Assembly (NCBI GenBank): GCA_052055015.1 | Contig: JBQJIT010000001.1 | DNA length: 64,000 nt | Strand: one strand, 5' to 3' | Source of the DNA: Malassezia furfur | Taxonomy: Eukaryota | Shown: positions 1,090 through 62,957 of the stretch, one piece after another | Numbering within the stretch: the first letter of the stretch is position 1 | Layout: every line of letters starts with the position of its first letter | Program-made: the position numbers and the translations under genes | Notes under the pieces: generated by a model | Database searches by the model: none | Told to the model about the DNA's origin: nothing | The model's input: only the letters and a program-made list of their open reading frames with translations

Positions 1090-2532
1090 ATGCGCGTCGA
1101 GCTCGACTTTCTCGATGGCTGCCTGGCCGTCCTGCAGGATCTGCGGGCGGGGGTGAGCCCTGCATCGCTCATTTCGCCGGCCTCGGGCGCGCCGAGCGCC
1201 ACGCTCAACCTGCGATCCATCACTGTCGACACCTTTGCCGTAGCGGTGCGCGAGCGTCCCTTGGCAAGTGACGTGCAGGACGCGCTCATCTCGCTGTTTG
1301 AGCGCGCGGTACAGCGGCTCAAGACCACCTTCTCGCAGCACTTTACCGACGCGCAGTCACGGTGGGGCGCGTCGCGCGCGCATGCCCTTCCTCTGCTCCA
1401 CGAGCTGTTCGAGACGCAGTGTGCCATGGCGGTGCAAGAGACCCAGGAGACAATTCTTGGCTTTGTCGACGAGCGCCTCGATGCATATATGGCCGAAGCC
1501 AATGCATCCCACCCCTGGCCGCGCCCACATAACGCCAAGGCGATCGCTATCCTCGAGACGGCTTTCCAACACGCACCCAACATCACCCAGGCGGAGAAAT
1601 ACAAACTTGCCGAAGCCACGGGGCTACAGCCGCGTCAGGTCACGATATGGGTACGTGTACACCTCACGCAGTTCCAAAACCGTCGCAACCGTCGCACGGG
1701 TTCGCGCCGCCCCCTGAAGCGTGTCGGAGGCCGAAGTCCTGCCGCCCGGCCACGCACCCCGCCTCGTCTTGCACCGGTGCCGCTGGCGCGGCGCAAGGAT
1801 ATGCCCGAGACGGTGGCTTCCTCGCAGGGCTCGAGTGAGCTAAGCGACGCGAGCGTGCCTGTCCCGCCGACATCTGCCGATGCCTCGGCCAAGGTCGAGC
1901 TGGGGCTTGATGCGCCGGGCGTGGAATGGGCTCCGTCGTCGCCAGAGCCGCTCGCACCGATGGATCTTCCGCTGCTTGGTCCACCGCCGCCTTGCCCCAT
2001 ACCTGAACCGGTCGCCAATGCCCCCGCGGCGCTATCGCTTGACGATCTCCTGGTGATGGACAATGCGCGGCAATGCCTCGTCTTTTCTCCGCTCGACCCC
2101 CTGCCGCGCCTCGACTTTGCCGACCTACATCTCGACTTGGAAACACTCGAACACGCACTTGGCCTCGCACGGCCCAGTCCATCGCTGCCATCGCTGTGCA
2201 CGATACCGAGCGTCCCTTACGACGAGCTGGCTGCCGCCCAGGCGCTCATGGCACAGCCACTCAGTGTCGCGGACGAAATCGTGGCGCATGCACAAGCGGA
2301 AGGCTGGTCGTTTGGCGATCTCGTGACTCCCATGCGTATGCCGCCCGGCCTGCACGCCACATCGGAGCTTGAGCGGCTCGCGGTGCACCTTGAGGGCCAC
2401 CTGCATTCGCCGCTGCGGCAGCGGTACGAGCCGATGCGCACCTCGGCACCGGTCACCGGTCCGCCGCGTTGGCTGCCGATGCAATGCTTTGGCGATCCAA
2501 GCGAGGCGGGTGTTGCTGCCACAGGCAAGTAG
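1090..2532 (+). CDS. bW: Mating-type b-locus HD2-class homeodomain protein (bW-like)
   Basis: ILETAFQHAPNITQAEKYKLAEATGLQPRQVTIW^FQNRRNR; removing the 21-nt intron 1651-1671 (GTACGT...CTCACGCAG) restores WFQNRR. Pro-rich C-terminus. Confidence 0.88.
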   Translation: MRVELDFLDGCLAVLQDLRAGVSPASLISPASGAPSATLNLRSITVDTFAVAVRERPLASDVQDALISLFERAVQRLKTTFSQHFTDAQSRWGASRAHALPLLHELFETQCAMAVQETQETILGFVDERLDAYMAEANASHPWPRPHNAKAIAILETAFQHAPNITQAEKYKLAEATGLQPRQVTIWVRVHLTQFQNRRNRRTGSRRPLKRVGGRSPAARPRTPPRLAPVPLARRKDMPETVASSQGSSELSDASVPVPPTSADASAKVELGLDAPGVEWAPSSPEPLAPMDLPLLGPPPPCPIPEPVANAPAALSLDDLLVMDNARQCLVFSPLDPLPRLDFADLHLDLETLEHALGLARPSPSLPSLCTIPSVPYDELAAAQALMAQPLSVADEIVAHAQAEGWSFGDLVTPMRMPPGLHATSELERLAVHLEGHLHSPLRQRYEPMRTSAPVTGPPRWLPMQCFGDPSEAGVAATGK

Positions 2533-2588
2533 GGTGTACGAGCTAGCGTGGGGGAATATGAATATGGCTACGGGTCACGAGCGTAGGC

Positions 2589-5500
2589 CTAGCGACGTGC
2601 GGCCGGGTCCTCTTTGCCGGTGCGCGCCATATGGCGCGACGCGCCGAGCGCTTCGAGTGTGAGGGCAAACAGCGTTTCCTCCTCCTTGTCCCACGGGAGC
2701 CCTGGGTTGTCGTAGCTTGCCTGAAGGCAGCGTGCGAGCTGCGTGCGGAGAATGCGGATCACCACAAGTGTCTTGGGATCGATCGTGGTCATGCGCACAC
2801 GGTTATGATCGATGTACAGCGAGCGGCTTGTGTGTTTGAACTCGGGCTCGCCGCCTGTGATGAGCACGTTGAGGTCGTCGATGTACGCCGTATCCCAGGC
2901 ATACAGGCGCTTGGACATCATGATGGAGTGGTATAGCAAAAAGTGCGTGGGTCCAAAGCGCGGACGCGTCTGGAAATTAACCGAAGTGGGGTGCACAGTG
3001 ACCAGCTGATTGTTGGTCATGGTGCGGATCGCACCGGTGCGCGTGTCGATCCAGGCGACCTTGGGGTACAGCGCGGCCACCAGCGCGAGCTGGATGGCCT
3101 GCGGGCATTCGGCGTACTTGTCGAGCTCCTGCGGCACCTCGATGAGGCGCGGACGTCCCTGGCGCGTGCGATTGCGCGCCAGATCGCGGCGCAGCTCCTT
3201 GCTGAGCGCCACAAAGCCCGTGTCGGCGAGGTAGCTGAGGTACTGCTGACGCAGCTCCTCCACCTGATAGAGGATGTCCTGCGACAGGCCGTTTACCGTG
3301 CACCACGGCACGCTGCGTTGCTGCCCCACCATGCGCCGCCAGGTGCGATACATCTGCACAAAACTCAAAAAGTCGCTGCGGTGCTGATTGAAGCGCGAGC
3401 GCGACGACGATAGGAATCGGTTGTTGGGTAGCCGCAAGAACGGCGTCTTGGAGTTGAGGATCGCGGCGATGGTTAGCGCCGCGTCCACACACCGGAAGCG
3501 CGTCGCGATCAGCAAAAATTTGCCGAGGTGCACGTCGAGCGGCATGTGGCACAGGTGGCGCCCAAGCGTGGTGATCTCCTCGTTTGGCGTGAGCGCCTGC
3601 ACCTCAACCAGCGAGGCCACTGCGCGCTGTACGTTGATCGCCTGGGGCGGATCAAGCGCCTGGCTGAGAGCATCCTCGATGCTGTCGCCCACCTTGATCT
3701 GCATCACTTTGAGCGTGAGCGCAAGCTCCTGCAGCGAGAGACGCAGCATCTCGGGCAGAGGGTGTGCATCCATAATCTCGTCGTGCCGCATCTTGGTAAA
3801 CAGGTGGAAGCACATGCCATGCTGTACACGGCCCGCACGACCGCGACGCTGCTTGGCGTTGCTGCGCGCAATGAAGCACTCCACCAGACGACTGATCTTG
3901 CGCTTCTCGTCGTAGCGCATTTCGCGGTGCCGACCCGTGTCGACGACGCACGTAATGTCGGGAATCGTAATACCGGTCTCGGCAATGTTTGTCGCGAGCA
4001 CCACTTTGCGCATGCCCTCGGGCGGCGGGTCAAATGCCGCCGCCTGGTCTTCGGGTGCAATGCTCGAGTGCAGAATGTGGATCTGGCACCGCTGCGGCGC
4101 AAACTCGGGCAGGCCCGAAAGCGCGCTCTCACAGTGCCGAATCTCACCGATACCGGGCAGGAACACAAGCACGGCGCGACTCATCGGCTCGAAGCGTGGG
4201 TCAGTGAAGAGCTTTTGAAGGAGCTTGGTGATCAGCTCGTAGTTGATCATGTACTCGTTCAGCTCCGTGAGTGTCTCGAGCGTTTGAGGGTTGTACGACT
4301 TGGCGTTCAATTGTACGTTCGAATGCTGTTTTTCCTCACCGTCGTCGTCGTTCATCTCAAAGTCAGAGTCGTCGTCGTCTTCGGTGCGAATTTTGACCTT
4401 GCCCTCTACCGGCTTTGGCAGCACGTAGGGCGAGTTGGGCTCCGGCTTGTACTCGCACAGCTCCACCACGTCCTCAAGGTAGTACTCGTCCACGGGGAAC
4501 GTGCGACCCGGCACCTGCAGCATCGGGCAGCCCCCAAAGTAATCACTGATCCGGCCCGCGTCGAGTGTCGCCGACATTAGCACCACCTTAAGGTTCGGCC
4601 GCTGCTGCATCAGCACCTTGAGCACCATCAGCAGGAAATCGGACTCAATCGAGCGCTCGTGCACTTCGTCGATAATGATGTGCGTAATCTCGTCAAACGA
4701 GCTCGACTCAAGCATGCGCAAAGCAATCCCGGTGGTGGCGTAGATCAGGCGCGCATTCCGGCCCACTTGGCTGTCCAAGCGGATGGCGTAGCCGACGTAG
4801 CTCTCCGGGCCTCCAATTGCGCCGCGTGCCTCACCGAGTTCTTGCGAGACGCGCTCCGCGAGCGAGATGGCCGAGATACGCCGCGGCTCGGTAACGTAGA
4901 TCTTGCATGGGCAACCGCGTCCCAGTGCGTCTTCGAGGAGGAAGGCGGGTAGCTGTGTCGACTTACCACACCCTGTCTCACCGCTCAACACCACCACCTG
5001 CGAGTGGGCGACGGCATCGAGGATCTCCTGGCGTGATGCGGCAATGGGTAGCTGCTCACGCCCAGGCACCATGGCCTGGTATGCGTCTGATGCGCGCCGT
5101 GCGTAGTACTCTTGCGCCAATCGATCGTCTGTCCGCAAGATCCGCTCGGCGCGCCGCTTGGATGGCGTCGCATCCGCCTTGATGGAGCGCGGCATGCGCC
5201 GCGGCACGACAGGATGCGTCGTGCGCCGCTCCAGGATATCCTGCATGCGTGCATAGTCGGAGCGCAAAAACGCCTGCTTCTCCTTGTTGCGTGCCGCCTC
5301 GAGTTCGTCCCAGAAAGCCCGAAAGCCAGCAGGGAGCAGGCGCTGAACCTGCTGATCGCGGACAAGGCAGTTGAGCGCAGCCGTGGCAATGAGGTCGTCG
5401 GCAAGTTGTTGCGTCTCGCACCCTTGGCTGGTCAGCTTAAACGTGTCAAACACTACACGCGCAGCCGACTGCCGGTTGGCCATGTTCCACCGGATCTCGA

Positions 5501-7374
5501 GTTGCGTGCGATGCACCGAACCACCCGAGATGGGCATGAACCGCTGCGTGGCGTACGGATCAGTGCGCCGCAATGCATCTGAGAGCAGCACTCGCGGGGA
5601 ACGAGGGCCCTGGCTCCCCGAAATGACGCGCAACTGTACCGTCTGCGTCTCGACCGGCTGAGGCTTCTCGTCTAGCAGCGAGCCCAAAATCGATTGGGAA
5701 TGGTCTTCCGAGTCAGAATCCTCCATTTCCGCCTGGTCGGTGGATTTTGTGTCGGGTTGGGCCGTGGACGGCTTCTTCTGAGGCGAGGACGGCATGTCAA
5801 AGATATCGTCCGCATCGTCCTGATTATTCTTATCGTCCCTGTCTTGGCTCCGGGCCGCGGGAAAGTGGCCCACAGGGTCATCGTCGCTCTCGTCGTCCAT
5901 GTCCCCCCTCATCGCCCGTTCGATCTCGGCACGACGGCGAGCGTGCACGTCCATTTGTGTGGATGCGGGCCGCTGTCCCTGCGGAGTATGGGTACCCGAC
6001 GTCCTACCCGCTGTCGCCGGGCTAGTAGACGCTTGCCGCATGCGTTCCTTGAACCGCTCTGCTGTAGCCTTCTTGTTGAACGACGGCTGCATTTCGGCCT
6101 GCTCCATCAGGTTGCTGGCATTGTGAGCGAGCTGCTGGAAAAGCCGCTTGCTCGTCCCTTCGTATGCAGCCTCCGCCAAATAGGGGTCCAAACGTTTGCC
6201 CAGGATCTTTTCACGGCGTTTCCGCTCTTGGTCAATGCGCACAAGGACGATGCGCGCCGTGCAGTACGCCTCGACGGGGTTTTCCACGGCATCTGCCAGT
6301 GGGTTCTCGGGATCCAGAATACTCTGCTGCTCTTTGATCATGCGCTCTGTCTCCTGCCACAGCTGCATTGGAAGCCCACGCGGGAGCGCGTCAAGGGTTG
6401 TCGGCGGCGCCAGGTCGGGGTCTCGTTTTTTTTGCTCCTGCTCCGCCATAAACTGCTCGCGAGTCTTTCGCTCGAAGGAAAATGCATTGTGGTGGGGGGC
6501 GATCGTCTCGTCCACCGCACTGGCAAACTCGGTCAGGTCCGTATCCCGTTTTTTCGGCTCTGGCGGCTCGAGCGAAAAGGTCGAAACACTGCGAATGTCA
6601 GAATCTGGAAGCTGCATGAAGAGATACGCAGCCGCCTCTTCAAACTCCAGATTGGGCGCATACTCGATGGCAATGTCTGCCTGTGCTGGTGTGAATCCAA
6701 TCGAGGTAAGAAGACTCCAGGTGGTCAACGCTGTTTCTAGCGTGCGGGTCTTTGAGTCCGCATAGGAGCCCATCCCGAGGGATTCCTGTACAATTTGGGT
6801 TGGGAGAAAGGGGTCCGTGACTTCTTTCCTCGCTTCTTTCCGGGGCGGCGCAGGCTCAGAAGATTCCACCTTGGGCACCTGTGGTTTGGGCGGCGGCGGT
6901 GACTCCCGTGAATGAATCGCCACACCGTCGGAAGGAGTCCGTGGTGCATTTGTCACACCGATGCTTGGTTCTTCCTCCTCGACGTATTCGCCTTTGGCAA
7001 ATGCCACGATCTGGTCTCGAATAGGACGAAATAGCCCATATGTAGGCAGCGATTTGGCGAGCCGCTGGTTGAACTCGATGGCCTGGGTCAGCACGAAGCG
7101 TACGCACCTTGAGCTTCCGTGGCGCTTCCTTTTCGACTTTGGGATTGATTAGGTCCACGAGCTTCTGCAGTTCCGAAGTCTCCTCTGACTCGGGCTCCAC
7201 CTCTGGCTCGGGCGCAGGGGCCTCGGGCGCGGAGGGCGGTGGGGTCACGGGCTTAGGCGCCGCAGCTGGCTTGGTGTCAGCCTCTTTTGGAGCGGGCTGC
7301 TCGCGTTTGGGCACCGAGGTGGTGGCGAACCCGCGCTGTACGTTCGATTTCAGCGAGGGTTTCTTCTTGCCCAT
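2589..7374 (-). CDS. DEAH/RHA-box RNA helicase (DHX29/DHX57-like)
   Basis: GETGCGKST, DEVH, SAT and QRRGRAGRV motifs plus HA2-like region; exon 1 MGKKKPSLKSNVQRGFATTS joined by a 25-nt intron 7083-7107. Confidence 0.9.
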
Positions 7375-7431: not shown

Positions 7432-9471
7432 ATGGGTGACAAGGACGTGGAGAGCGGTGGGACCGCGCATCCTGCCAGCAATAAGGCGTACGTGCAGCAC
7501 TGACCCAGGTCCAGCGCCATGCGCAATCAGCCCGTGAAACGGTACGACGGTGAGCCATTGACGCGCGTCGATGTACAGCACGCGATGCTGTGCCACCTCT
7601 TCTCGGACACACGCCGCGTCTTTACCAACCCGCGCCCTGGCCCTCGCGGTGCACCCACGTCCACGTTTGTGAATGCACTGGGAGATACGCCGCACAGCGA
7701 GGCGGACAAAGGGCTCGTCGCTAGTCAACCGCCGGCCGTGCAGGTGCAGGTCGCCGAAGCGATTAGTGGGCCATTCCCCACGCCGCTCTGGCCGTATGGG
7801 CAGTCGGCCGGCTCGGCGCGCCGCAGTGATGAGACGCCCGAAGAGCTCAAAGAGTGGGAGGTTCGGCGTGCTGCATACCTGGACTGGCGCAACGCCGAGT
7901 ACCCCAACTCGATCACGCCCGTCGCCGAGCTAGACCATCCGAATATGCAATGGCAGCATCCAGGCGCCGAGAAGCTCACGTTCAAGGAGCTCTACATTGA
8001 GGCGTTGATGAACAGCTCCAAATGCACCAAGAGCATGCGCGAAAAATGCTTACTTGATGAGGAATATGCCGAGGACTTTTCTAAGGTGTGTCTGCTGGTG
8101 AATGTGGGGCGCATCAACACGACGCTGGCATTCTACCCAGAAATGAAGACCATTCTCCGCTCCTACCACCCTGTTCCCTCGCTGCAAAAGTCGGAAAACA
8201 CGCGGCGCAACATGCAGGATGCCCCGCGCATGAAGTCATTGCTCAAGGCTGTGCTGCTGCCCTACGAGCGGCCTGGGCCGCCGGGCGGCACAGCGACGGC
8301 GTCCGCAGCAGCGCGCCACAATCCTAGCGAGGATACCGAGGAGGTGCCATCGGACCTGTCCGAGATCGCGCGCCGGCTTCGCCGCAATCATCTGCCGCCA
8401 ACCTCGGTGGTGACGCTCATCTTCTTGCTTACCCAACAGGCCAACGACGTGACAAGCCTGCACTTCCCTGCGCCCTACGACATCCACTCCCTCTTTTTCC
8501 CACAGGCATCGCATCCTATCTCGGCAAAACAGCGTGCCGAGGCATTCTTGTGGCTCATCTACCACTACCTCGAGGGCCCTGCGGCCAAGAACCCCGGCGA
8601 GCCTGGCTCAGAGAACCCGTTCGACGATGCTTTCTCGACTGCCGCGCGGGAACAAGCGCGCCGCGCCTGGGTCGGAGCCGGCTCGCCCCCGCTTACCGAG
8701 ACACAGCCGCTGTGGCGTGGCGTGCGCAATCCTGCGTACACCCACTGGAAAGAAACCCACGAGGTCGGTGCCACCGAAGAGGAGCGGAAAAAAGCGCGTC
8801 AGCGCGCCGAGCAGACCGACCCGTGCCCGGAGGCGTACTTGGACCGTGTGCTCATTCCTGGGTTTGTGCCAATCTCTGCCGAGGCGTTTGCCGCCGAGGA
8901 TGCCGATACGCCCGAGGAGATCGAATGGGGCAAGCAAATGCAGCAGGAGCGAGCCGCCTTCCTGGTCCGATTCCAGGAAGAGGAGCAGGCCAAAGTATTG
9001 GCCAATGGTGGCACGGTCGATGAGGATGCCGCGAGCGAAGAAGCCAAGCCCAAGCGCCGCATCCACGCGGGTACGCAGAGCTGCTACCCGCTTGCCAACA
9101 TCCTTGCGAATGCGGCAGCCGCGGGGTCAAACCAGGGCGCTTTGGCGCGCTCCCCGATCGGATTTGTGAAGCGTGCGCGCCTCTCGTCGCGGCAGACCCA
9201 CAAGGACTCGCGCGAGTCGTCGGTTGCTGTAGCAGAGGACGTGCCCGTGGATGAGGCGGAGCCCATGGATCGCCAGGGCTCGTCGCTGTGGGACCTCTCG
9301 CTGGAAGAGCCCGCGAGCCAGGCACAGACCTCGTTGGTGGAGGAGACGTGGCAGAGCATTCGCAACACCAAGGGCGATGAACTCGTCGACGAGCCGTTCT
9401 CCAATGCAAGTCTAGCGCGCGTCTTGTTGGTGCATCGCAACCTGCGCGAATTGCGCGAGGCCCCATTGTAG
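7432..9471 (+). CDS. IES1: INO80 complex subunit Ies1-like
   Basis: CLLVNVGRINTTLAFYPEMKTILRSYHPVPSLQ and MQDAPRMKSLLK motifs; ATG 7432 joined in frame by a 21-nt intron 7488-7508 that contains an in-frame TGA. Confidence 0.8.
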
Positions 9472-11262: not shown

Positions 11263-12145
11263 TTCCTGTGCCCGGGCCTCCACAGCGCTCACCCAGCGCT
11301 GTTCCAGGTACTTCTTGAGCATGGGGAATGTCTTGAACGTTTGCTCCGTATCGAGGTCGACCAGTGGCCCTTTGAGCAAGTTTTCGTAGTAGGTGCGCGG
11401 GTGCGGCAGCTTCCGTATTCCGTCGCTGGCCATCTTTCGCGCCTCGGCGAGGGTCAGCCAATAGCCGACGCGCGGGTGGAAGGAGAGGTAATGCTACGTG
11501 AGCCACGCACGTACCTTTTTGTGTTTCATACGCTCCGAGACCAACTCGCCAGAGATGACCTGGGTCAGTAGGCAACCTACATGGAGATGAACATGCCGCA
11601 TCGACGGAATGGAGTGGAAGCCGCAACGAATGTCCCACTCCACACCTTGTGCCGCCTTGCCCTCGTGGGCGTAATCGCAGTCCAGTGGCTGCTCTGGAGG
11701 GATGACCAGCTGCTTCATAGCCTCGCGTATGCGCTTCACAAGCTGTGTCAGTACACTACGTACACGATCGCTCGCACGTTGGAGGCACTCGAGTATGAAT
11801 GGTGCATGCCGACTGGCCAGCACTGAGCTAATTGAGTCTAGCTCACGTGTGGGAACCTGGATACGTTTGCGCTTCCCATTGTCAAGCACTTCGTCACAAT
11901 ACAGCGGCAGCCGGGGGAGGACGAGGAAATGGAACTGCGCCTTGGGGTAGCCGTCGTAGATCGTGTAGGTGTGTTCGTCGGAGTCGATTAACACCCGGTC
12001 CGGGAGCGCTGCCTGGGTTACCTTCCTCACCCACCTCTTCCGTTCGTGCAATCTGCTTCAGTGCATCGGACCACGCGCCCGCGCCTAATGTCCAGGGACG
12101 CGTGTGTCGCGCAAGCTGCAGGCGTCCCTGCGCACGCGCCATCAT
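11251..12145 (-). CDS. HNT3: Aprataxin / HIT-family DNA 5'-deadenylase
   Basis: DGYPKAQFHFLVLPR, GFHSIPSMRHVHLH^VIS and KHKK^HYLSF after removing introns 12013-12034 (22 nt), 11743-11763 (21), 11560-11580 (21), 11494-11514 (21). Confidence 0.88.
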
Positions 12146-49800: not shown

Positions 49801-50569
49801 CCACTGCCGGCGTTCCTCGGGCGGCGCTTCTTGCACATCGTGGAACATGCGTGGAATCGACTCCACCGGCAGCATTTCATCGACCACCGCATCGTCGTTG
49901 CGTGGCGCCGGCGCCTCGTCGGGCATACGGTACAGCCCGTCGGCGTCCGCCGTGATCACCGTGCGCTCCTGCGCCGTATTCGCGGGAAGCCGTGCAGCCC
50001 ACTCGGGCACCGCATCGCCATGCACCGCCTCAGTGTCCAAGCCGCGCGTAAAGCCGGGCGGCACTCGTCGTAGCGCTTCGCCCTTTGCGCCGCCCGAGGT
50101 CGAGTCCTCTTCGACTGCATCCTCTTCGAGGCCACCAGGGCGGAACGGCGCCGCACCTGACTTGCCGCGTACAAACGTGTGTGCAGGGTTGATGGGACGC
50201 TGCATCGACATGTTGGGCGTTGCGCCTTGGCTCAGCTCTTGCAGCGCCGACGCGGTTGGCACCTCGCGGTAGCCCACCACGGCGCCATGCAAGCCGCTCC
50301 GCACAAACTCGAGCGTCGCAGTACTTGGCGATGGGTCCATCGCCAGCATTGAGTCGTAGCGCGGCTCGCGCGTCCAGTGCCTGGATGAGTGGGTGGGCAA
50401 CGTACGCTTGGTCCTGCACCATCCACGTGTGCTCCGGCTCCCATTTGGGCATCAGCAGCGTGTCCGCAATCTGCGCGCGGCATTTTTCGGCATCCGGGCC
50501 ACCAGGGCGCAACGCAAGGTCACGCAGCAGGGTATCCAGCGACGGCGCCTCGTCCAGTGCCGTGCCCAT
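46876..50569 (-). CDS. SKI2: Ski2 DExH RNA helicase
   Basis: AHTSAGKT, DEVHYVND, FATETFAMGVNMPAR, IRRDIVFAASLY; N-terminal FVRG...PFRPGG; 25-nt intron 50381-50405. Confidence 0.93.
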
Positions 50570-50645: not shown

Positions 50646-51267
50646 TTAGAAGCCTGCGTAAGCCCTCAACACGCACAGCAGTCGCAGTCAAATGGACAGA
50701 GCGGTGTACCTGGGTCAGTCGGGCAACGTACCTCCGCCTTGGTTCAGTTTCAACTCGTCCTCGGCAAAAATGCGGAAGCCTTCTTCGGTGCGTTTGCCTG
50801 CGTAAGTAGTGACACGTACGGTCCTTGCCGCGTGAGTCTGCAAATGCCGCGTCCGCCTCATCGAGCTTAGGGGGTCGCGGCTGCGATGGCGCGCTGCGCG
50901 TCTGGTTCGACGTGTCGTGCACCACGGTGGGTGCACGCGATTTGGGCTTGGTGGGCGCCGCGGCACCGCTCTTAGCCGGCGCGTCGCCTTTGCTGGGCTC
51001 AGATGCCGCACTCTTGCCGTTTCCTCCCTTGGCACGCACAGTCTCAGACGCATCGGGTGCAGTGACCCCGCCCGGTGCGCCCTTGGCGCTCTCTTGCTTG
51101 GAGCGTTTCTTGGTCTTTTTCGCGCGGGAGTCACTGGCCTCAGAGGTCTCTTCTAAGGTACGTTTGCTGTTCGCCTTCTTCTCTTTCTTCGTAGATGCTG
51201 GCTTGTCGTGCGACACCGGCGCAGACTTCCCACCCAGTGCGGCAAAAATCTCATCCATCTCACTCAT
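50646..51267 (-). CDS. DUF1764-like small basic protein
   Basis: MSEMDEIFA...FADSRGKD^RKRTEEGFRIFAEDEL...GG^GTPLCPFDCDC^CF* after introns 50798-50819, 50710-50731, 50654-50676. Confidence 0.8.
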
Positions 51268-51322: not shown

Positions 51323-52953
51323 ATGGTCAACATTCCGGGCGTGCTGGCGGTGGCCAGCGCTCTGCGCCGTCCTGGGATCCTGCGACCGCACATCTCCGTG
51401 CACTGTAGGTCGGAATTTCTCACACAGCACTCGCCCAGGTCGACTGGAACAAGGTGTATGCGTCCGGCGTTCGTTTCCTGGTGTTTGACAAGGACAACTG
51501 CTTGGTACGGTCGCCGACTGACCCAGACACGACCGTATGATGACCACCTAGTTCCGGCGCTGCAGCACTCCTGGGATGAGTGCAAGCGCGTCTTTGGCTC
51601 GGAAAATATCTTGCTGGTAAGCAACTCGGCGGGTACGCGCAGCGATCCGCACGGCATCGCTGCTGAGAACGTCTCGACCGAACTTGGGGTGCCGGTGCTG
51701 CTGCACGCGTCCAAGAAGCCGGGCAAGGCATGTGCCAAACAAGTTGTTGACTACTTCCACGAAATTGTACAGCGGGGGCGCCAACCAGATACCATCCCCC
51801 ATGTGCTCGTTGTGGGAGACCGCACGACGACCGATGTGGTTTTGGCTTCGCGGATCGGAAGCCTGCTCAACGACGACGTCCGAACGACCGACTCAGACAC
51901 CGCAGTGAGCAACGACGATGCGCCCCGATTGCCCTTGTGCTCTTCTATGCTCACCACCCAGCTGTGGGCACCCGAGAAGCTGGGCACACGTTTTATGCGG
52001 GGTACCGAGAACCGCATTCTCCAAGCTGTCATTCGCTGCGGCATTCCACCCGGGGGTGGATGGCGCACCCGCGCTCATTTTGCCTCCCCGGCGTGGTTGC
52101 AGGATCTGCCGGAACCAGTACCGGTCACGCCGCCAGAGCCGACGCCACAGTCTATTGTGCTTTCAGCAGTGGCATCGTGCTTTCCGCCGCGCCTCGTGCG
52201 TTTTCTGCGCGCGTTTGCGCGCCTAGGCCTCCGCTTCATGCGAATCCGGCGCATTTCACGCGGCGTGCGTGCGCTCCGGTCAGGCTGGCGGATCATGGCG
52301 CAGGAGGTGTTTCGCACGGTGCGAAAGACGCGCACGGCATCCTGGTCGCTCCTTACCAATGCTCCTGCCGAGGGCTGGACGTCCACTTGGCGCACCCGTC
52401 GTCCAACCGTGTTTAAAGACGGCATGATTCCTCCCATGGGCCAGCAGCGGAGCGGCAAGCACAACCGCCTGTTTTCTTCGCGTCCTGCTGTACAGGCAGC
52501 CGAGCGTGCCCCGCATGAGCGTCCTGTGCGCCGTCGCACGCCGCAAGAAGCCGCGTCGCACCTACCGCCATCGGAGCCGTCAGTGCGGGCGCAGCGCTCG
52601 GGTCTCTTTGGCATCGGATGGCGCCAGTGGCTCATGGCGCTGGCCGCACTCATTATTTTGCCCTCTGGATTCATTGGTGGAATCAAGCTAAACGATGCCA
52701 TTACGCAGTGGAAGGAGGGCGATCTGTCCAACAAAGGGCACGCAGAGAGCATGGAGGACTTTGCGACGCCTCGCGAACGCGACGCCGTGGCTGCCGACAT
52801 GGCCAACGACACGGCCGCTGAGGTCTCTAAGAAAATTCAAGAGTATGTCCATGAGACTAACGCAGGTTGGAGCGCGACTACTTCTTCCTGACGCGGGAGC
52901 GCAACGACGTCCAGCACAAGCTCGAGCGCCTGCTCGCCCGCGATCGGGTGTAA
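51323..52953 (+). CDS. GEP4: Mitochondrial phosphatidylglycerophosphatase Gep4 (HAD IIIA) with long C-terminal extension
   Basis: FDKDNCL appears only after splicing 51405-51427 and 51505-51526; VSNSAG, KKP, VVGDR..TDV; third intron 52843-52865. Confidence 0.82.
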
Positions 52954-53017: not shown

Positions 53018-54017
53018 ATGATCCTGCTGGGTGCGGAGAACCTGTTGATCCGTGACCTGCTCACCAGCCGGTTCGAAACGTAGGTTGTCGCACACTGATT
53101 CAGCCCCGCGGCCGTCGACCAGGTCTTCAGCGACTTTGATGGGGTCGCATACCACATCGAGTCGACCAAGGAGGGTCCGTTGACCCTCTCGATGGACATT
53201 CGGTGCTGGCCGGAGCTTGTGCAGCAGGGCGTCGAAGAGTCGCTGCACAACGTATACGGTGGATGGATCCGCAAGGGCGCTGAGCCGGGCTACAATATCA
53301 CACTCGAGTTCAACTACCAGTCAATCCCTCCTCCGGGCGGTACGTGCGCCGACTGACGCAGCCGATCGCGATGCCTTGATTCATACCGTGTCGCTGTTGA
53401 AACGCAATGCGGTTGCCGCTCCGTTTGAGCGTGCGTTCGAGCAGCAGGCGCAGCTCGAGGCTCAGTACGATCCGTCGGGCCCACCGCCGCCGGGCTCGTT
53501 GATTCCCATTCACTACCGCCCCGGCGAGGGAATCTACATTCTTCCCGCGCACGATCGTGTCACGGTGGTGTTTAGCACGCGCTTTGAGGAGGAGGCCGAT
53601 CGCGTGTTTGGGAAGGTGTTCCTGCAGGAGTTTGTTGACGCACGACGCCAGCCATCCATCCAAAATGCGCCGCAGGTGCTGTACTCGTCGCGTGAGCCTC
53701 CGCTCGAAATTCGGAGCGTGCCTGGACTGCAGCGCGGCGAGGACACGGGCTACGTGACTTTCGTTCTGTTCCCTCGCCATTTTCAGCATCCCGACGTGCG
53801 CTACTCGACGATCTCGCATATCCAGCTCTTCCGGGATTACCTGCACTATCACAGTACGTCTTGTTGCGCTGACCCAGTCAAATGTTCCAAGGCCTATATG
53901 CACAGCCGAATGCGCTACCGCGTTTCCGAATTCCTCAAGGTGCTCAACCGTGCGAAGCCCGAGCACGCCGAAAAGCAGCGCAAGACGGCGAGCGGCCGGA
54001 CGTTCCGCCAGGCTTAA
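53018..54017 (+). CDS. ARC35: Arp2/3 complex subunit 2 (p34-Arc)
   Basis: MILL, SDFDGV.YH, DRVTVVFST.F, KVFLQEFVDARR, FRDYLHYH^IKCSKAYMHSRMR; introns 53080-53103, 53340-53361, 53854-53877. Confidence 0.95.
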
Positions 54018-55186
54018 ATAGAGTCCCAGCCAAGCTCTGTCCATATGTACTCGCCCTCGTCCTGGCGCCCAAGACCCGGGCGCCGGGGCAGCGTGCGTTT
54101 TGACCGGGTGCGCAGGACATAGCCGTGGTACGGTGTCGCCTCGGCGTCAATGGCATCGTCAATGGTCCGGTAGAGGCCGGCCAGTCGCCCCGCCGAGCGC
54201 ACCGGCACCAAGATGTGTGCACGAGCATCGGGGTCTGTTTCGGGCTGGCGCAAGAGGTACTTGATCGCGGCGAGGAGCCATGTTGCATGCAACGGGTCGT
54301 ACACCACGTCGGCCGCCAGCAACAGTGATGCGCTCTGCGGCGGAGGCACACGACACACCACGCCTTCTGCGGCCGCTTCCGGGTGCAACAGGGCATGCAG
54401 CGCACGCCAGTCCAGTGCCTCACATACAACACGCACGTTGGGCGTCGGCTCGTTCAGGAGATGGGTATCCAGATTGTAGCGCAGGTTGGACATGACGTCG
54501 TCATGGTAGTCAGTTATAAATACCTCCGACGCAAAGTCGCGTAGGGCCATGAGTTTCACAGCAATCATGCCGACGATTCCTGTGCCTGCACCCAATTCAA
54601 CAATCGTGAACGGATCCGTGCATGGCGCCCGGCTCCCGTCCAGTGCGGGGTGGAACGTGCGGGGCTCGGCCACGAGCAAATCACACATGATGACCGAGCT
54701 CGCATACGTTTGCACACCAACGGCAGCCGCAGCTTCTTTTGCCCCCTGCCGGCTGTGCGCATCTGAGGGCGGCAGCGGGGCATCGCGCACCGTGAGGGAC
54801 AGCGTAGGCGTCGCCTGGTCCATCGGGAAGGCAAATTCGCGCACAATTTCCCCAGCTTCGAGCGCCGAAGTACACCCTGCTAACAACTGCGCGGTACGCT
54901 CCATTGCCGCCGTACGCTCTGGACCCTCTTCCACCCATGCGAGCTCCGAGGCGAGCAACCGCGTAAGCCAATCCATCGCGTAGGCGCGTTCGGTGTGGTC
55001 CGCCGACGCGGCCTCCAGTGCGTCGCGCAGTTCGACCGGCCAATCTGCGGGTCGCGGCGCGAACAGACATGATAAGTATACGAGTGCATCCGCGATGACC
55101 TCGATGCTGGGCTCGCGCCGTAGCCGCGGTAGCGCCGCCGTCGGGGGCAGGCGCGCCGCCTGCTCGGCCTGCGCCGGCACTACCAT
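54014..55186 (-). CDS. Class I SAM-dependent protein-lysine methyltransferase (METTL21/Efm2-like)
   Basis: VELGAGTGIVG, ITDY, NL..N, LDW, LAADVVY. Confidence 0.82.
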   Translation of the reverse strand: MVVPAQAEQAARLPPTAALPRLRREPSIEVIADALVYLSCLFAPRPADWPVELRDALEAASADHTERAYAMDWLTRLLASELAWVEEGPERTAAMERTAQLLAGCTSALEAGEIVREFAFPMDQATPTLSLTVRDAPLPPSDAHSRQGAKEAAAAVGVQTYASSVIMCDLLVAEPRTFHPALDGSRAPCTDPFTIVELGAGTGIVGMIAVKLMALRDFASEVFITDYHDDVMSNLRYNLDTHLLNEPTPNVRVVCEALDWRALHALLHPEAAAEGVVCRVPPPQSASLLLAADVVYDPLHATWLLAAIKYLLRQPETDPDARAHILVPVRSAGRLAGLYRTIDDAIDAEATPYHGYVLRTRSKRTLPRRPGLGRQDEGEYIWTELGWDSI

Positions 55187-55243
55187 ACTTCGAAGTTTAT
55201 TATGTAAGCACGTGAAAGAGCGAGTGGCCCGTTCCTTACTACA

Positions 55244-56416
55244 ATGACGTTCGAGCAGGCTCCTCACAAGCTTTTGATGATTCCCGGCCCCATTGAGGTC
55301 GCGGACGATGTGCTGTACGCCAACGCGCACCATGCGATGGCGCACGTTGCGCCGCAGTTCGTGCCCGTGTTCGGCGAGGTGCTCACGAACCTCCGCAAAG
55401 TGGTGAATGCATCGAAGGATGCACAGCCGCTTGCGATTGCCGGCAGCGGCACGATGGGCTGGGACATGACGGCCCTGAATGTGCTCCAGCCCGGAGAGGA
55501 GGTGCTTGTGCTCCAGACTGGGTACTTCTCTGACGGCTTCGCCGATGCGCTCAACGCCTACGGTGTGAAGACCACCAAGGTCGAGGCGCCGGTCGGCAAG
55601 CGCCCGACGATCGAGGAGGTCAAGAGCGCGCTGAAGCAGAAGAAATACCGCGCTGTGACCATCACACACGTCGACACCAGCACGGGTGTGCTCAGCGACG
55701 TCAAGGCGATCGGAGAGGCGGTCCGTGAGGTGAGCCCCGAGACGCTTGTGCTTCTCGACGCCGTCTGCAGCGTTGCCTCGGAGCAGCTACGCTTCGACGA
55801 ATGGGGCGTGGACGTCCTGCTTACCGCATCGCAAAAAGGTCTGGGCTGCCCGCCTGGTATGTCGCTGATGATGGTCAGCCCGCGTGCGCTCAAGGCGTTT
55901 GAGTCGCGTTCGGCACCGCCGGCGACCTACTATCTCAGCTGGAAACACTGGATCCCCGTGATGAAGGCGTACGAGAGCGGATCGCCCGCATACTTTGGCA
56001 CTCCCCCCACGAACCTCATCTACGCGCTCAACCAGAGCCTCAAGACCATCCTTGAGGGTCCCGTGTCGCTGGAGCAGCGCATTCAGAAGACCAAGGAGGC
56101 CTCGGACAAGGTCAAGAAGTTCGTGGCTGACATGGGTCTTAAGCAGCTCGTTGCGGAGGACCTGCAACAGAGCAACGGTGCCGCGAACGGCATGACCGCC
56201 GTGCGCTTCCCTCCGGGTATGAAGGCGCCGGATCTGCTGCCCAAGGTGGCCGAGCGCGGTGTGGTGTTTGGTGGTGGTATTCACAAGGAGTGCAAGGACG
56301 AATACTTCCGCATTGGCCACATGGGTGTCTCGGTGGTGGATTCGTCGCGCAACGACGTCGACAAGCTGCTTTCTGCGCTTAAGGAGGCGCTTGCTGAGGC
56401 CGGCTACAAGCCGTGA
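55244..56416 (+). CDS. AGX1: Alanine:glyoxylate aminotransferase (class V)
   Basis: LMIPGP, GSGTMGWD, THVDTSTG, DAVCS, ASQKGL (PLP Lys), FRIGHMG. Confidence 0.92.
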   Translation: MTFEQAPHKLLMIPGPIEVADDVLYANAHHAMAHVAPQFVPVFGEVLTNLRKVVNASKDAQPLAIAGSGTMGWDMTALNVLQPGEEVLVLQTGYFSDGFADALNAYGVKTTKVEAPVGKRPTIEEVKSALKQKKYRAVTITHVDTSTGVLSDVKAIGEAVREVSPETLVLLDAVCSVASEQLRFDEWGVDVLLTASQKGLGCPPGMSLMMVSPRALKAFESRSAPPATYYLSWKHWIPVMKAYESGSPAYFGTPPTNLIYALNQSLKTILEGPVSLEQRIQKTKEASDKVKKFVADMGLKQLVAEDLQQSNGAANGMTAVRFPPGMKAPDLLPKVAERGVVFGGGIHKECKDEYFRIGHMGVSVVDSSRNDVDKLLSALKEALAEAGYKP

Positions 56417-56861: not shown

Positions 56862-57385
56862 CTAAGCATTTCCCCGCTGCTGCAATGCTTTCTGGGTGAG
56901 CCATCCAACATACCACTTGCATCACCTCGCCGACAACACGAACATTATCCTGCTTGCGATGAATAGTGTCTTGCAACTGCTCCATGTTCTTGGTAACGTA
57001 GGCAATTTTGTCTTCGTAGTGCTTTTTCGCATCGGCACGCGATTTTTCCACGAAATAACCCGTCCCAACATCGACAATCACTCTTTCCGGATCGCTGAGA
57101 CGTCCCGGAACATACAAAGAAGACGTCAGGGGAAGTAGCGACACTTTGTCTGTACAGTGAGCCTGGGTGGCCTACCTTGATTTTCCGGTCCGATGCGTTC
57201 CACCGACTCGAGACAGCCTTGGAAGCGCGTCTGCGCAAGCTTCAGCTGACCAAACATGGTCGTGAACTGCTTAAGCTCAAGCTCCAGCTGCTTGCGCACA
57301 TCGAGAAGCTGTGTAAGCTTGCCTCACCTACTTGTGGTACGTCCAAGTCGGTCACGTCGACCTGTTGCGGCTGTGTGGAGGTCAT
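56862..57385 (-). CDS. GIM5: Prefoldin subunit 5
   Basis: LPLTSSLYVPG...VIVDVGTGYFVEK; introns 57309-57331 (23 nt), 57150-57175 (26), 56892-56913 (22). Confidence 0.92.
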
Positions 57386-57431
57386 GGCCAGAGTCACACT
57401 TTCCAAGTGACACGCGCCTTATCTCCCCACG

Positions 57432-58604
57432 ATGCCGTTTAAGCAGGCCCCGCACGACCTTTTGATGGTCCCCGGCTTCATCGAGTTCTCCGATGAGGTA
57501 CTGTGGGCCAACGCACATCCCGCCGTCGGCCTCATATCGGATGAGTTTGTGTCGGCGTTCGGCGAGGTATTGGACGGTCTCCGTAGGGTGATGTATGCCT
57601 CGAAGGACTCGCAACCAGTGGTGCTGTCCGGGAGCGGGAATATGGGCTGGGATTTGGCCACGCTAAACGTGCTTGAGCCTGGAGACAATGTGCTTGTATT
57701 GCAAACGGGCCACTTCTCAGATTTGTGGGAAGAGTCTCTCTTGCCGTATGGCATCAACGTCACGAAGCTGACAGCGCCAGTGGGCCAGCGTCCCTCGATT
57801 GAAGAGATCAAGGAGGCACTGAAGCAGAAAAAGTACCGCGCGATTACTATCACGCAGGTGGATACCAGTACGGGCGTGTTGAGCGATGTGAAGGCAATTT
57901 CCGCGGCCACGCACGAGGTGAGTCCGGAGACATTGGTGTTTGTGGACGGTGTGTGCAGCGTGGGCGCTGAGGAGCTGCGTGTGGACGACTGGGGCATCGA
58001 CTTTGTGTTGACGGCACCGCAGCAGGGTCTTGGATGCCCGCCTGGTGTGTCGATCATTTTGTTGGGCCCTCGTGCTCTCAGAGCCTGTGAGGAGCGCAAG
58101 GCGCCGGTCGAGTCCTACTTCTTGAGCTTGAAGCGTTGGATCCCCGTCATGCGGTCCTTTGAAGGCGGCAAACTTGCATACCTTGCAACACCTCCGACGA
58201 ACCTTATCTTTGCCATGCAGGTGAGCCTTCGGGACATGCTCAAAGGCCCTGTTTCGCTTGAGGAGCGTTTCGAAAAGACCAAGCAAGCTTCGGCCAAGGT
58301 CAAGGCGTTCGTTGCCGAAATGGGCATGCAACAGCTTGTGTCCGAGGAGCTGCAGCGCGCGCATGGCGCAGCGAACAGCATGACGACGGTGCGCTACCCC
58401 AAGGGTATCACGGCCGCCGACATTGTGCCCAAGATGGCCGAGCGCGGCGTGGTGATCGGTGGGGGCATCCACCACACGTGCAAGGACGACTACTTCCGCA
58501 TTGGGCATATTGGCATTTCGGTCACCGACGAGTCGCGCGGCGATGTCGACAAGGTACTGACCAACCTCCGCGAGGTACTGGCCGAGGCGGGCTACAAGCC
58601 ATGA
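57432..58604 (+). CDS. AGXT paralogue lacking the PLP-binding lysine (probable pseudoenzyme)
   Basis: 390 aa and colinear with 55244-56416, but APQQGL replaces ASQKGL. Confidence 0.85.
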   Translation: MPFKQAPHDLLMVPGFIEFSDEVLWANAHPAVGLISDEFVSAFGEVLDGLRRVMYASKDSQPVVLSGSGNMGWDLATLNVLEPGDNVLVLQTGHFSDLWEESLLPYGINVTKLTAPVGQRPSIEEIKEALKQKKYRAITITQVDTSTGVLSDVKAISAATHEVSPETLVFVDGVCSVGAEELRVDDWGIDFVLTAPQQGLGCPPGVSIILLGPRALRACEERKAPVESYFLSLKRWIPVMRSFEGGKLAYLATPPTNLIFAMQVSLRDMLKGPVSLEERFEKTKQASAKVKAFVAEMGMQQLVSEELQRAHGAANSMTTVRYPKGITAADIVPKMAERGVVIGGGIHHTCKDDYFRIGHIGISVTDESRGDVDKVLTNLREVLAEAGYKP

Positions 58605-58623: not shown

Positions 58624-59800
58624 CTACTTGGAGAACATCTTTGCATACGCAGCGCGCTGCTTGTCGAGACGGGCCTTGCGGCGCTGCTCGACGGCTGCCT
58701 GTTCCTTGAGAATGCCTGCATCGTTCGGGGCATAGCGCAGCGCGTCACTTAAGTCGGTCTTCGCCTCGTCATCACGCTTCATCGCCGAGCGCGCCAGCGC
58801 ACGGCGGAAGTGGGCCTTGGCGAGCTCCGCGGCGCTGGGCGCATGCGCCTGGCCGGCGCGCTCAATGACGTGCGACGCAAGCGACTCGGCAAGCGCGTTT
58901 TGCGACGTCTTGAGTGCACACAGCGCTCCATTGAGCTGGAGGGGTGTGCGCATCGCCATGTAGTCCTTGGCGAGCTGGGCGTCGGTCGACTCGGGGAGCT
59001 CTGGGTTCACCATGAGGTAGCGCAGCGCCTTTTGGTATTTCTCGAGCGCGGGCGCCCATTCCTGTTTGCCAACGAGGCCCGCGGCAAGGTTCTTGAGGTC
59101 GGTCGCAATGCGGAGCGCCTCCTGTGGCTTCTCCTCGAGGTCCACGTCGGCGTCCTCGGGGTAGTTTTCGTAGCGGTCGCCCGTCGCGTCCGGCGCAATA
59201 CCGTAATCAAAGTCCGGCACCGCGAGCTGCTCGGGGCTGAACTCGCCGCAGTCGGCGATGGTGACCGTGTGAACAGGCACGTCGTTGGCGCCTGTGGGCG
59301 CCTGCTCGATGCGGCGCACCACGTCCTTGCCGCGGAGCACACGGCCGAAAACGACGTGTTTGCCATCGAGGTGCGGCGTGGGCACAGTGGTGATGAAGAA
59401 CTGCGAGCCGTTGGTGTTGGGTCCCGCATTGGCCATGCTCAGCAGGAAGGGCACGTCGTGTTTCCCATCGAGCTTTTCGTCTTCAAACTTTTCGCCGTAG
59501 ATCGACTCACCGCCAGTGCCGTTGCCGTTGGTGAAGTCACCGCCCTGGATCATAAAGTGCGGGATGACGCGGTGGAACGTGCTGCCCTTGAAGGTCAGCG
59601 GTTTGCCGGATACGGCGCTCGCGCCCTTCTCGCCTGTGCACAGCGCACGGAAGTTTTCGGCGGTCCTGGGCACCTTGTCCGCATACAGCTCGAGCACGAT
59701 GCGGTTCTCGCCCGCCCGCACGGGTGCGGGTGCGTCGGCGATCGCGATGTCAAGGTCTGGGTGAGTGTGTGCGCGACGTACAAACGACGGGGTTGGGCAT
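58624..59800 (-). CDS. CPR6: Cyclophilin-40 (PPIase + TPR)
   Basis: MPNPVV^YLDI (intron 59757-59781), [26 protein letters not shown]-terminal TPR ending YAKMFSK. Confidence 0.92.
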
Positions 59801-62171: not shown

Positions 62172-62308
62172 GGTCGACAGCACCGTCACCGGGTCCGTCC
62201 ACACCCCAACGCTCACGCGCTCGTCGTTGGCGTGGTCGAAAGGCGCCACCCCCACGCTCGGCCGAAAAAGGGCGCCCCGCGCGCTCACCGCCCGTTCCCC
62301 CGGAAACC

Positions 62309-62957
62309 ATGTGGATGAACGTAGGTCGTGTGCTGAGCCTGCTCGCGCTCGTGTGTGCTACGGCGTCGCTCGCGCTGTCGCACAAGGACGCGAAGGTCAC
62401 CAACTACGTCTACTTTGATATCGAGCAGGGCGAAAAGACGCTCGGTCGCGTGACGCTCGGTCTCTACGGCGAGACGGCACCCAGGACCGTCGAGAACTTC
62501 GTGGCGCTGGCCCAGCGCGGCGAAGGCCGTGGCTACGCCGGCAGCAAGTTCCACCGCGTCATCAAAAACTTCATGATCCAGGGCGGAGACTACACGCGCG
62601 GCGACGGCCGCGGCGGTCTGTCGATCTGGGGCAAGAGCTTCCCGGACGAGACGTTTGCGTTGACCCACGAGGGCCCCGGCATCCTCAGCATGGTACGTCC
62701 CCTACGCCACGCTCACACAGGCAAACGCCGGCCCGGACTCGAACGGCTCCCAGTTCTTCATCACCACGGTCAAGACGCCGTGGCTCGACGGGCGCCACGT
62801 GGTCTTCGGCCGCGTCGTGGACGGCATGGACGTCGTCAAGGCCATCGAGTCCACCAAGACCTCCTCGGGCGACCGCCCGGTCGAGGACGTGGTCATCGCC
62901 GACTCGGGCATCCTTACCGATGTCGAGGCGGGCACGCCGTCCAAGGATGAGCTCTAA
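62309..62957 (+). CDS. ER cyclophilin B-type PPIase
   Basis: Signal peptide, [17 protein letters not shown]^ANAG (28-nt intron 62693-62720), [11 protein letters not shown]-terminal KDEL. Confidence 0.92.

Follow-up and report, generated by a model that had tools for sequence, protein, structure and literature searches.

Introns of 21 to 33 nucleotides in a 64-kb window of Malassezia furfur: probable U2-type introns close to a minimal architecture

The window is the whole stretch of DNA analysed here, 64,000 nucleotides (nt) of contig JBQJIT010000001.1 (assembly GCA_052055015.1) from the skin yeast Malassezia furfur. It is 63% G+C and densely filled with eukaryotic genes, among them genes for homeodomain proteins, an aprataxin, a family-X DNA polymerase, Rav1, Sla2 and two cyclophilins. 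About 20 of the genes carry GT-AG introns, 42 in all, the first at 1651-1671 and the last at 62693-62720, a density of 0.66 per kb. All intron counts below refer to this one 64-kb window. Eleven introns are 21 nt long, eleven 22 nt, seven 23 nt, three 24 nt and six 25 nt, and lengths of 26, 27, 28 and 33 nt occur once each. The median is 22, the mean 23.1 and the maximum 33. Judged from the sequence evidence, these elements are very probably genuine introns of the canonical major (U2-type) class, shrunk in Malassezia to a near-minimal architecture.

The inventory was built with a codon log-odds score trained on long open reading frames (ORFs), followed by gene models and then by looser scans; lengths down to 15 nt were admitted. 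A preliminary description of the same DNA had likewise counted 42 ultra-short introns between 1651 and 62720, a number that the rebuilt inventory reproduces. Its length list was identical for the classes from 23 to 33 nt, and differed in giving ten 21-mers and twelve 22-mers where eleven of each are found.

A strict motif was counted on both strands: GT[AG]NGT, a spacer, CTNA[CT], 0 to 6 nt, and YAG. It matches 41 times, against 5.05 +/- 2.5 times (maximum 12) in 100 dinucleotide-preserving shuffles, an eight-fold enrichment. Thirty-seven of the matches are introns of the inventory, two are 17-nt sub-hits nested in 21-mers, and one (50832-50870) is antisense to its gene. The last is a false positive, since the 22 nt at 55857-55878 would break the frame within an intact class-V aminotransferase (Aminotran_5) domain; it may be one of the 22-mers of the earlier list. 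Five slightly off-consensus introns complete the 42, with the 5' sites GTAGGC (at 22116, 43538 and 57150) and GTACGG (51505) and a TTAAC branch motif (30302). Candidates of 34-120 nt with coding flanks all turned out to be in-frame stretches of continuing ORFs, and none was supported.

Homology-level support is available for 36 of the 42 introns. It comes from Pfam profile continuity, from homologue alignments, and from relatives that lack the intron or have one of another length at the same site. Among the relatives used are six Malassezia-like metagenome contigs (L001 to L006), which are syntenic with the window over 37-60 kb. At 18 window intron sites these contigs either lack the intron and show exactly the predicted junction, or have one that matches in site and phase and differs in length and sequence. 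An automated junction test against them gave paired matches at 11 of 17 junctions. The six junctions that it missed, whose flanks are short or of low conservation, were settled by using longer peptides or by reading the flanks.

The first intron, of 21 nt at 1651-1671 (+), lies in a homeodomain gene of the HD2/bW-like kind. It is in frame without a stop, and its removal restores W/FQNRR (in peptide motifs a slash marks the junction). This string, and likewise HVHLH/VIS, GIGF/GPANLA (the FAD-binding loop) and FVP/GNPG below, we take to be family motifs. Exon 1 ends at position 47 of 57 of the Homeodomain profile, and the unspliced ORF has 54 residues over 47 profile positions. The gene is one of two divergent homeodomain genes at 40-2529. 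Homeobox_KN and the Ustilago B-locus mating-type family are the matches of the minus ORF 40-1056, and Homeodomain is that of the plus ORF 1009-2529; the pair looks like an HD (b) mating-type locus. A hidden in-frame intron was considered for a 9-residue excess in the HD1 homeodomain of the minus ORF and was rejected, there being no splice signals at that place.

Three 21-nt introns interrupt the aprataxin/Hnt3 gene on the minus strand. The one at 11494-11514 contains an in-frame stop, and homologues from Vanrija, Kwoniella and Malassezia are contiguous at KHKK/HY. The one at 11560-11580 is in frame without a stop; its removal restores HVHLH/VIS of the HIT domain, and homologues are contiguous there. 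The third, at 11743-11763, is also in frame without a stop, and the protein of Malassezia sp. CBS 17886 runs through the site contiguously. The best named match of Hnt3 is from M. furfur (82% over half of the query); across the long-exon queries in general, unnamed records reach 85-99%. An 86%-identical relative has 7-residue (21-nt) read-through inserts at all three intron sites, so these introns are 21 nt long there as well.

In the gene of the SidA-type ornithine monooxygenase (+), a 27-nt intron at 15059-15085 with an in-frame stop separates the two halves of GIGF/GPANLA, and the next exon starts at position 12 of the Lys_Orn_oxgnase profile. The second intron, of 22 nt at 15189-15210, falls where the profile continues from 39 to 41, and the middle exon aligns weakly to residues 40-70 of PvdA 3s5w. 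Two of the short-exon Pfam matches are weak, E being 0.014 for the Lys_Orn_oxgnase match just named and 0.031 for the other. At 13546-16753 this N-monooxygenase gene stands divergent to a GNAT Acetyltransf_8 gene on the minus strand, probably forming a siderophore biosynthesis pair.

A lipid-droplet hydrolase gene (+) follows. Removing its 22-nt intron at 22116-22137 (GTAGGC) restores FVP/GNPG, where the M. caprae protein is contiguous. A 21-nt candidate at 22839-22859, in frame and free of stops, is proposed from its splice signals only, the M. caprae model being uninformative at this place. The 22-nt intron at 22990-23011 follows from frame logic only. The neighbouring Rav1 gene (+), whose best named matches are from M. 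psittaci and M. yamatoensis (43%), has five introns, all at positions where Malassezia homologues are contiguous: 25 nt at 23250-23274, 24 nt at 23437-23460, 22 nt at 23706-23727, 21 nt at 26765-26785 and 25 nt at 26979-27003, the last at M/GCD. The second and fourth are in frame without a stop. The M. yamatoensis model has a 10-residue insert beginning with VR at the former site, and ORF-style translations of relatives show a similar VR read-through at the latter.

The family-X DNA polymerase (PolX) gene on the minus strand has its best named match in M. japonica (62%). Its introns are of 22 nt at 28602-28623, 21 nt at 28692-28712, 21 nt at 30111-30131 and 22 nt at 30302-30323. Homologues from Pseudozyma, Jaminaea and ascomycetes are contiguous at the first, and all four are supported by comparison with these fungi, so that here, as with Vanrija and Kwoniella in Hnt3, the comparison includes fungi outside Malassezia. 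The second is in frame without a stop; non-Malassezia homologues are contiguous at GY./F, and the M. japonica and M. vespertilionis models carry VR inserts of 7-8 residues at this site. The third is of the same in-frame, stop-free kind; most homologues from Malassezia run through the site contiguously, and the M. japonica model has the insert VRTTAH. The fourth has the TTAAC branch motif and contiguous homologues at SHA./R.Y.L. A conserved gene of no assigned function (ORF 30554-31621, with 14 relatives) has a 21-nt intron with an in-frame stop at 30538-30558 (+). A 52%-identical relative is contiguous across it, and an upstream ATG lies at 30428.

 Frame logic only argues for a 25-nt intron at 7083-7107 (-) in a DEAH-box helicase gene, where it joins ORFs of different frames; a nested 21-nt alternative cannot change frame. 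It is likewise the argument for a 21-nt intron with an in-frame stop at 7488-7508 (+), joining an ATG exon (7432) to ORF 7510-9468 of a 653-residue ORF of no assigned function, and for a 23-nt intron at 33958-33980 (-) in an M28 peptidase gene. A 21-nt candidate at 31701-31721 (-), in frame without a stop in the 3' end region of an uncharacterised 463-residue ORF, is proposed from splice signals only. The preliminary description had said that a few in-frame introns were of this last kind, and there are two, this one and 22839-22859.

In the right half the syntenic contigs are the main witnesses. The Sla2 gene (ANTH/I-LWEQ) has a 23-nt intron at 41893-41915 (-), where the ANTH profile continues from 23 to 25. 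The intron is absent, with the split Lys codon intact, from L002, L003, L005 and L006, and is 53 nt long in L004. Close to it lies a tRNA-Pro(AGG) at 42155-42237 (-), which may contain a short tRNA intron because its 83 nt exceed the standard tRNA length. A membrane-protein gene of no assigned function has a 33-nt intron with an in-frame stop at 43447-43479 (-) and a 25-nt intron (GTAGGC) at 43538-43562 (-), and at both sites all six related loci are contiguous. The 23-nt intron of an arrestin-like gene at 44802-44824 (+) is absent from L001, L004 and L005 with zero gap at the junction. Likewise, L001, L002, L003, L004 and L006 are contiguous at the 25-nt intron of the Ski2 helicase gene (50381-50405, -).

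A gene on the minus strand, ending in the conserved C-terminal motif CPFDCDC/CF, has three introns that are kept in the relatives with other lengths. Intron 1 (50798-50819, 22 nt) corresponds to introns of 23 nt in L001, 30 nt in L004 and 26 nt in each of L002, L003 and L006. For intron 2 (50710-50731, 22 nt) these lengths are 24, 28 and 25 nt. Intron 3 (50654-50676, 23 nt), which splits the motif, has the same flanks and 25 nt in all five contigs.

The PGP-phosphatase gene (51323-52950, +) also has three introns. The first (51405-51427, 23 nt) is absent from L002, L003 and L006 and measures 24 nt in L001 and 27 nt in L004. The second (51505-51526, 22 nt, GTACGG) is followed by an exon that starts exactly at position 53 of the PGP_phosphatase profile, and L001 has a 23-nt intron. 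At the third (52843-52865, 23 nt) L002, L003 and L006 are contiguous, and in L001 a 24-nt intron is read through as 8 residues. Of the 520-residue model, only the first ~150 residues belong to the PGP-phosphatase domain. The related contigs also conserve the C-terminal part of the model, which has a hydrophobic stretch and an end resembling a coiled coil.

In ARPC2 (p34-Arc, +), intron 1 (53080-53103, 24 nt, with an in-frame stop) is absent from L004 and has 25 nt in L001. Intron 2 (53340-53361, 22 nt) is absent from L001 and has 38 nt in L004, and the P34-Arc profile continues across it from 48 to 54. Intron 3 (53854-53877, 24 nt, in frame, no stop) lies between profile positions 213 and 215 and has 23 nt in L001 and 80 nt in L004.

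An alpha-type prefoldin gene (-) has its intron 1 at 57309-57331 (23 nt; 25 nt in L001, 46 nt in L004) and its intron 2 at 57150-57175 (26 nt, GTAGGC; 26 nt in L001, 53 nt in L004), the next exon matching positions 42-115 of the Prefoldin profile. Its last intron, of 22 nt at 56892-56913, is frame-shifting, and in L004 the protein match stops at 792, followed by a motif intron of 33 nt at 793-825. The gene is flanked by two class-V aminotransferase paralogues at 55208-56413 and 57411-58601 (+). A minus ORF at 54017-55786 with a Methyltransf_16 match overlaps the first of these by ~500 nt, which means that the true start of this ORF must lie internally. A Cyp40-type cyclophilin gene (-) has a frame-shifting 25-nt intron at 59757-59781, with similar flanks, read by eye, around introns of 24 nt in L001 and 41 nt in L004. 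Finally, the 28-nt intron at 62693-62720 (+) of another cyclophilin gene lies where the Pro_isomerase profile continues from 93 to 94, exactly at the exon ends.

A list of this kind could in principle arise from motif matches by chance, from assembly indels or from insertions of another kind. About five motif matches are expected by chance, and two of the 41 strict matches look like chance. Such an origin would leave unexplained the eight-fold enrichment, the restriction to the sense strand of the host gene (42/42), the exact restoration of frames, motifs and profile coordinates, and the conservation of position across species with variable length. The probability that the elements are something other than introns is thus negligible, and the sequence comparisons have effectively refuted this alternative already.

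A second alternative concerns only a part of the list. In 26 introns the length is not divisible by three, and these must be removed to keep the frame. The other 16 are multiples of three (3n); six of these contain an in-frame stop and ten do not. Some of the ten might be retained or alternatively spliced, so that 7-8 extra residues are encoded in part of the protein pool. Nonsense-mediated decay would not detect the retained forms, 3n introns show no depletion here such as most ciliates have (PMC13685798), and two of the ten come without homology support. The remaining eight, however, interrupt conserved motifs or homologue-contiguous positions, such as the homeodomain recognition helix, the HIT histidine triad and the PolX thumb, where a retained form would probably be non-functional. 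Such partial retention is quite unlikely, and excision of these elements as ordinary introns is the preferred reading.

The intron lengths at shared sites show how far the window differs from its relatives. Window introns are shorter than, or about equal to, the same-site introns of every related contig compared, and exceed those of L001 by 1 nt at two sites. In the relatives of ~52-53% GC, introns are generally 25-80 nt long. Because of these same-site lengths, extreme shortness is specific to the GC-rich lineage formed by the window and L001, and the series looks like progressive shrinkage. The 80-nt ARPC2 intron of L004 has a distal CTGAC and a pyrimidine-rich stretch, and the same-site introns of 38-80 nt suggest that the genus also splices a conventional intron geometry.

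Presence and absence vary as well. Four window introns (43447-43479, 43538-43562, 44802-44824 and 50381-50405) are absent from every related contig compared. Single relatives lack introns independently at other sites, and L001 has two Ski2 introns that the window does not have. Counting partial absences, the Sla2, arrestin-like and Ski2 introns, both membrane-protein introns, PGP-phosphatase introns 1 and 3 and ARPC2 introns 1 and 2 are each missing from some relative. Intron turnover in the genus is high. Recent gain in the window lineage may account for the membrane-protein, Ski2 and arrestin-like introns, which are absent from all relatives compared, though other sites show clear independent losses.

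The splice signals are uniform. All 42 introns begin with GT and end with AG. The 5' site is GTACGT in 23, GTAGGT in 7, GTATGT in 5, GTAGGC in 3, GTGCGT in 2, and GTAAGT and GTACGG in one each. It fits GTRNGT in 38/42, with G at +5 in every intron and A at +3 in 40. The predicted branch motif is CTNAC in 35 introns, CTNAT in six and TTAAC in one, so that [CT]TNA[CT] fits all 42. The 3' module reads R-C-T-N-A-C-N-C-A-G, with C at -9 in 36 introns, T at -8 in 37, A at -6 in 37, C at -3 in 40 and a purine at -10 in 32. The acceptor is CAG in 40 introns and TAG in two.

After the predicted branch A, 37 introns have 5 nt, two have 6 nt and three have 8 nt. Counted from the 5' end, this A lies at position 16 in 12 introns (all eleven 21-mers and one 22-mer), at 17 in 12 and at 18 in seven, and never before 16. 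A polypyrimidine tract between branch and acceptor was found in none of the 42, the only pyrimidine preference being at -5 and -3. The introns are 58% G+C. This anatomy bears out what the preliminary description had said of the signals: GTRNGT, CTNAC and N-CAG, a branch A usually 6 nt from the 3' end, no polypyrimidine tract, a fused branch/acceptor signal (the contiguous RCTNAC-N-CAG), and some 16 nt between 5' splice site and branch in the 21-mers.

The polypyrimidine tract is a metazoan-type feature and is not universal. Minor (U12-type) introns have a rigid RTATCCTT 5' splice site and the branch sequence TCCTTAAC. A TATCC 5' end of that type occurs in 0/42 window introns, and G stands at +5 in all.

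The lower edge of the length distribution was examined with the 3' module fixed at exactly 5 nt after the branch A. Spacers of 0 to 5 nt then give 0, 1, 3, 1, 0 and 0 matches, and spacers of 6 to 10 nt give 12, 9, 8, 3 and 5, with 0 or 1 for each longer class; shuffles give 0.08-0.23 per class. Four of the five matches below 6 are alternative 5' GTs nested in validated longer introns, and the fifth (32022-32037, 16 nt) lies within a continuous ORF, as do the short candidates 47329-47344 and 49372-49390. The nested 17- and 18-nt GTs (11494-11510, 22843-22859, 23444-23460 and 53344-53361) give the wrong frame or conflict with homologues. A 20-nt alternative (26979-26998) to the 25-nt Rav1 intron leads into a frame without coding signal, and homologues disagree with it.

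In this way, the scan of the window down to 15 nt yielded no supportable intron below 21 nt, and a sharp 21-nt edge holds for this sample. Twenty-one nt is at once the minimum and a joint commonest class. The contigs L001 to L006 likewise have no supported intron below 22 nt, a 20-nt match in L002/L006 being left unchecked. A 19-nt match in L001 is nested, and a 21-nt match of L001/L005 lies inside a continuous protein match.

The hard floor of 21 nt that had been claimed is, in the window, a sharp edge below which nothing is supported; as a genomic rule it would go beyond a sample of 42 introns. The edge could be a sampling effect, 21-22 nt being merely the mode of a distribution with a thin genome-wide tail of 18-20 nt introns. 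The sample is small, detection depends in part on a motif model that was itself derived from these introns, and the annotators of M. restricta set minimum intron lengths of 20 and 15 (PMC6473144). On the other side stand the 22 of 42 introns that lie within 1 nt of the minimum with nothing to their left, the fate of all five sub-21 matches, the 21-nt inserts of the 86%-identical relative at all three Hnt3 sites, and the related contigs, where apart from the unchecked 20-nt match nothing below 22 nt was supported. A sampling effect is on balance unlikely, though it is the most serious of the alternatives.

A simple geometry matches the edge. Four parts make up each intron: a 5' splice site of 6 nt (GTAYGT or GTAGGT), a spacer no shorter than 6 nt, the branch site RCTNAC and N-CAG. 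The predicted branch A stands 5 nt short of the intron end and 16 nt or more from the 5' end. The parts, of 6 + 6 + 5 + 4 nt, add up to 21 nt, the observed minimum. Since the distance from branch to acceptor is at its own minimum in nearly every intron, the variation in length and the floor both lie in the distance from 5' splice site to branch. In a 21-mer almost every nucleotide would be part of a signal. Six would pair with U1 and then with U6, about seven (RCTNAC and a neighbour) would pair with U2, and NCAG would serve as acceptor, leaving a linker of ~4-6 nt. The CTNAC adenosine would be used as the branch, excision would be carried out by a conventional spliceosome, and the floor would be steric, the U6/5' splice site and U2/branch helices needing a few linking nucleotides.

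Alternately, introns as small as these may need a modified or reduced spliceosome, with loss or change of U2AF, SF1, SF3b or features of the small nuclear RNAs (snRNAs), and a dedicated recognition of the fused branch/acceptor. There is no room for a pyrimidine tract in the 5 nt after the branch A, and the U1 and U2 sites are only ~6 nt apart, so that simultaneous binding would look crowded. Fused branch and 3' splice site motifs accompany divergent spliceosomes in Giardia and Trichomonas (PMC6679479). Against this, relatives carry same-site introns of 38, 46, 53 and 80 nt, the longest with its distal branch motif and pyrimidine-rich stretch, and the signals are those of the textbook U2 type. 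Stentor, whose introns are smaller still, is reported to conserve its snRNAs and most core proteins (PMC9505925). A modified spliceosome is accordingly improbable, and a conventional one acting on shrunken introns is the better explanation.

Small introns are known from several other lineages. The introns of chlorarachniophyte nucleomorphs measure 18-21 nt and those of microsporidia are short; these belong to different lineages with strongly reduced genomes and spliceosomes. The window introns resemble them in extreme minimisation within a compacted genome.

Among ciliates, the heterotrichs Stentor and Blepharisma have introns of 15-16 nt, and those of Paramecium are ~25 nt long (PMC5014332). 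Like the window introns, these tiny introns have GT-AG termini and lengths piled up against a sharp minimum. Unlike the window introns, with 58% GC and a strong CTNAC, they are AT-rich (75.6% AU in Stentor) and have a weak branch consensus (PMC9505925). Most ciliates also disfavour 3n introns, in contrast to the 16 of 42 here (PMC13685798). The branch A of Stentor lies at position 10 of 15, and is followed by 5 nt as in the window (PMC9505925). This agreement suggests that 5 nt after the branch is perhaps a general minimum. The distance from 5' splice site to branch is 10 nt in Stentor compared with at least 16 nt in the window (PMC9505925), and the larger figure would be lineage-specific, perhaps since full-length 5' and branch signals are kept.

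Giardia, Spironucleus and Trichomonas have a fused branch/3' splice site module, VCTRACACRCAG or RCTAACAARYTAG (PMC6679479). As in the window, it forms one contiguous unit with a fixed distance from branch to acceptor, and the 5' splice site is extended and rigid. Unlike the window, these organisms are reported to have very few introns, of at least 43 nt and with 7-8 nt after the branch A (5 nt in the window), some trans-splicing, and divergent snRNAs. The fusion in the window looks like a by-product of shrinkage, because relatives have distal branches at the same sites.

Within Malassezia, shortness itself has been described, as the preliminary description had noted. M. sympodialis has 5350 introns in 7.79 Mb (0.69 per kb) with a mean of 30 bp, 99% of them supported by RNA sequencing (PMC5389616). 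The introns of M. restricta average 37.2 with a median of 30 (PMC9241646), and a review mentions Malassezia genes with "very short introns" (PMC7426719). The window introns agree with these in their GT-AG ends, in being tens of nt long and in density, and differ in being shorter still. Very short Malassezia introns are therefore already in print, and the window shows this published trait in a more extreme form. No 21-nt edge, invariant spacing of branch and acceptor or 16-nt branch distance was found for Malassezia in a literature search that left out most subscription journals. The precise geometry and the sharp edge are thus a useful and possibly unreported quantification. The intron-size curve of M. 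sympodialis (supplementary figure S8 of PMC5389616) may already show a lower edge.

A wider reading can be proposed tentatively, as a real possibility that falls somewhat short of probable. It holds that in the GC-rich Malassezia lineage nearly all introns have been driven to a hard limit set by the geometry of a fungal spliceosome that is otherwise conventional, giving maybe the smallest fungal intron set (median 22 nt). The lack of 3n avoidance would then imply very efficient splicing or a tolerance of retention.

Several points weigh against reading the window as a set of excised introns at a fixed limit. Excision is deduced from sequence evidence, and the branch adenosine is a motif-based assignment. 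Four introns (7083, 7488, 22990 and 33958) are argued from frame logic alone and two (22839-22859 and 31701-31721) from signals alone. The 3n introns are not depleted, so that retention of some of the ten without a stop may occur. Introns in untranslated regions and introns with weak signals were possibly overlooked by the scans. The floor is based on 42 introns of one 64-kb window, and 16 nt is not a universal limit, the branch A lying at position 10 in the 15-nt introns of Stentor (PMC9505925).

The small size of these introns has consequences for annotation, and the prediction that gene finders would mis-annotate many of the genes is borne out by public records. Translated in-frame introns appear as inserts of 6-10 residues beginning with VR in NCBI proteins of M. 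japonica, M. vespertilionis and M. yamatoensis. An M. furfur HNT3 model of 115 residues breaks off at the first intron. Fusion with a neighbouring gene affects Rav1 models, the partner being an aminotransferase in M. psittaci and a hydrolase in M. caprae. In-frame introns that are silently translated, together with models fused because of tight gene spacing, lead to systematic errors in the public proteomes of these Malassezia skin yeasts; a splice model whose minimum is set at 21 nt would correct them.

Current understanding of splicing is not overturned by these introns. They provide two clean numbers for an apparently standard fungal spliceosome, at least 16 nt from 5' splice site to branch and 5 nt from branch to intron end. 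Since introns at the same site range from 80 nt down to 22-24 nt across relatives, shrinkage toward the limit can be traced within one genus. If the limit is indeed a hard one, Malassezia would lend itself well to defining the minimal intron through mutagenesis and structural work, because the genus can be transformed.

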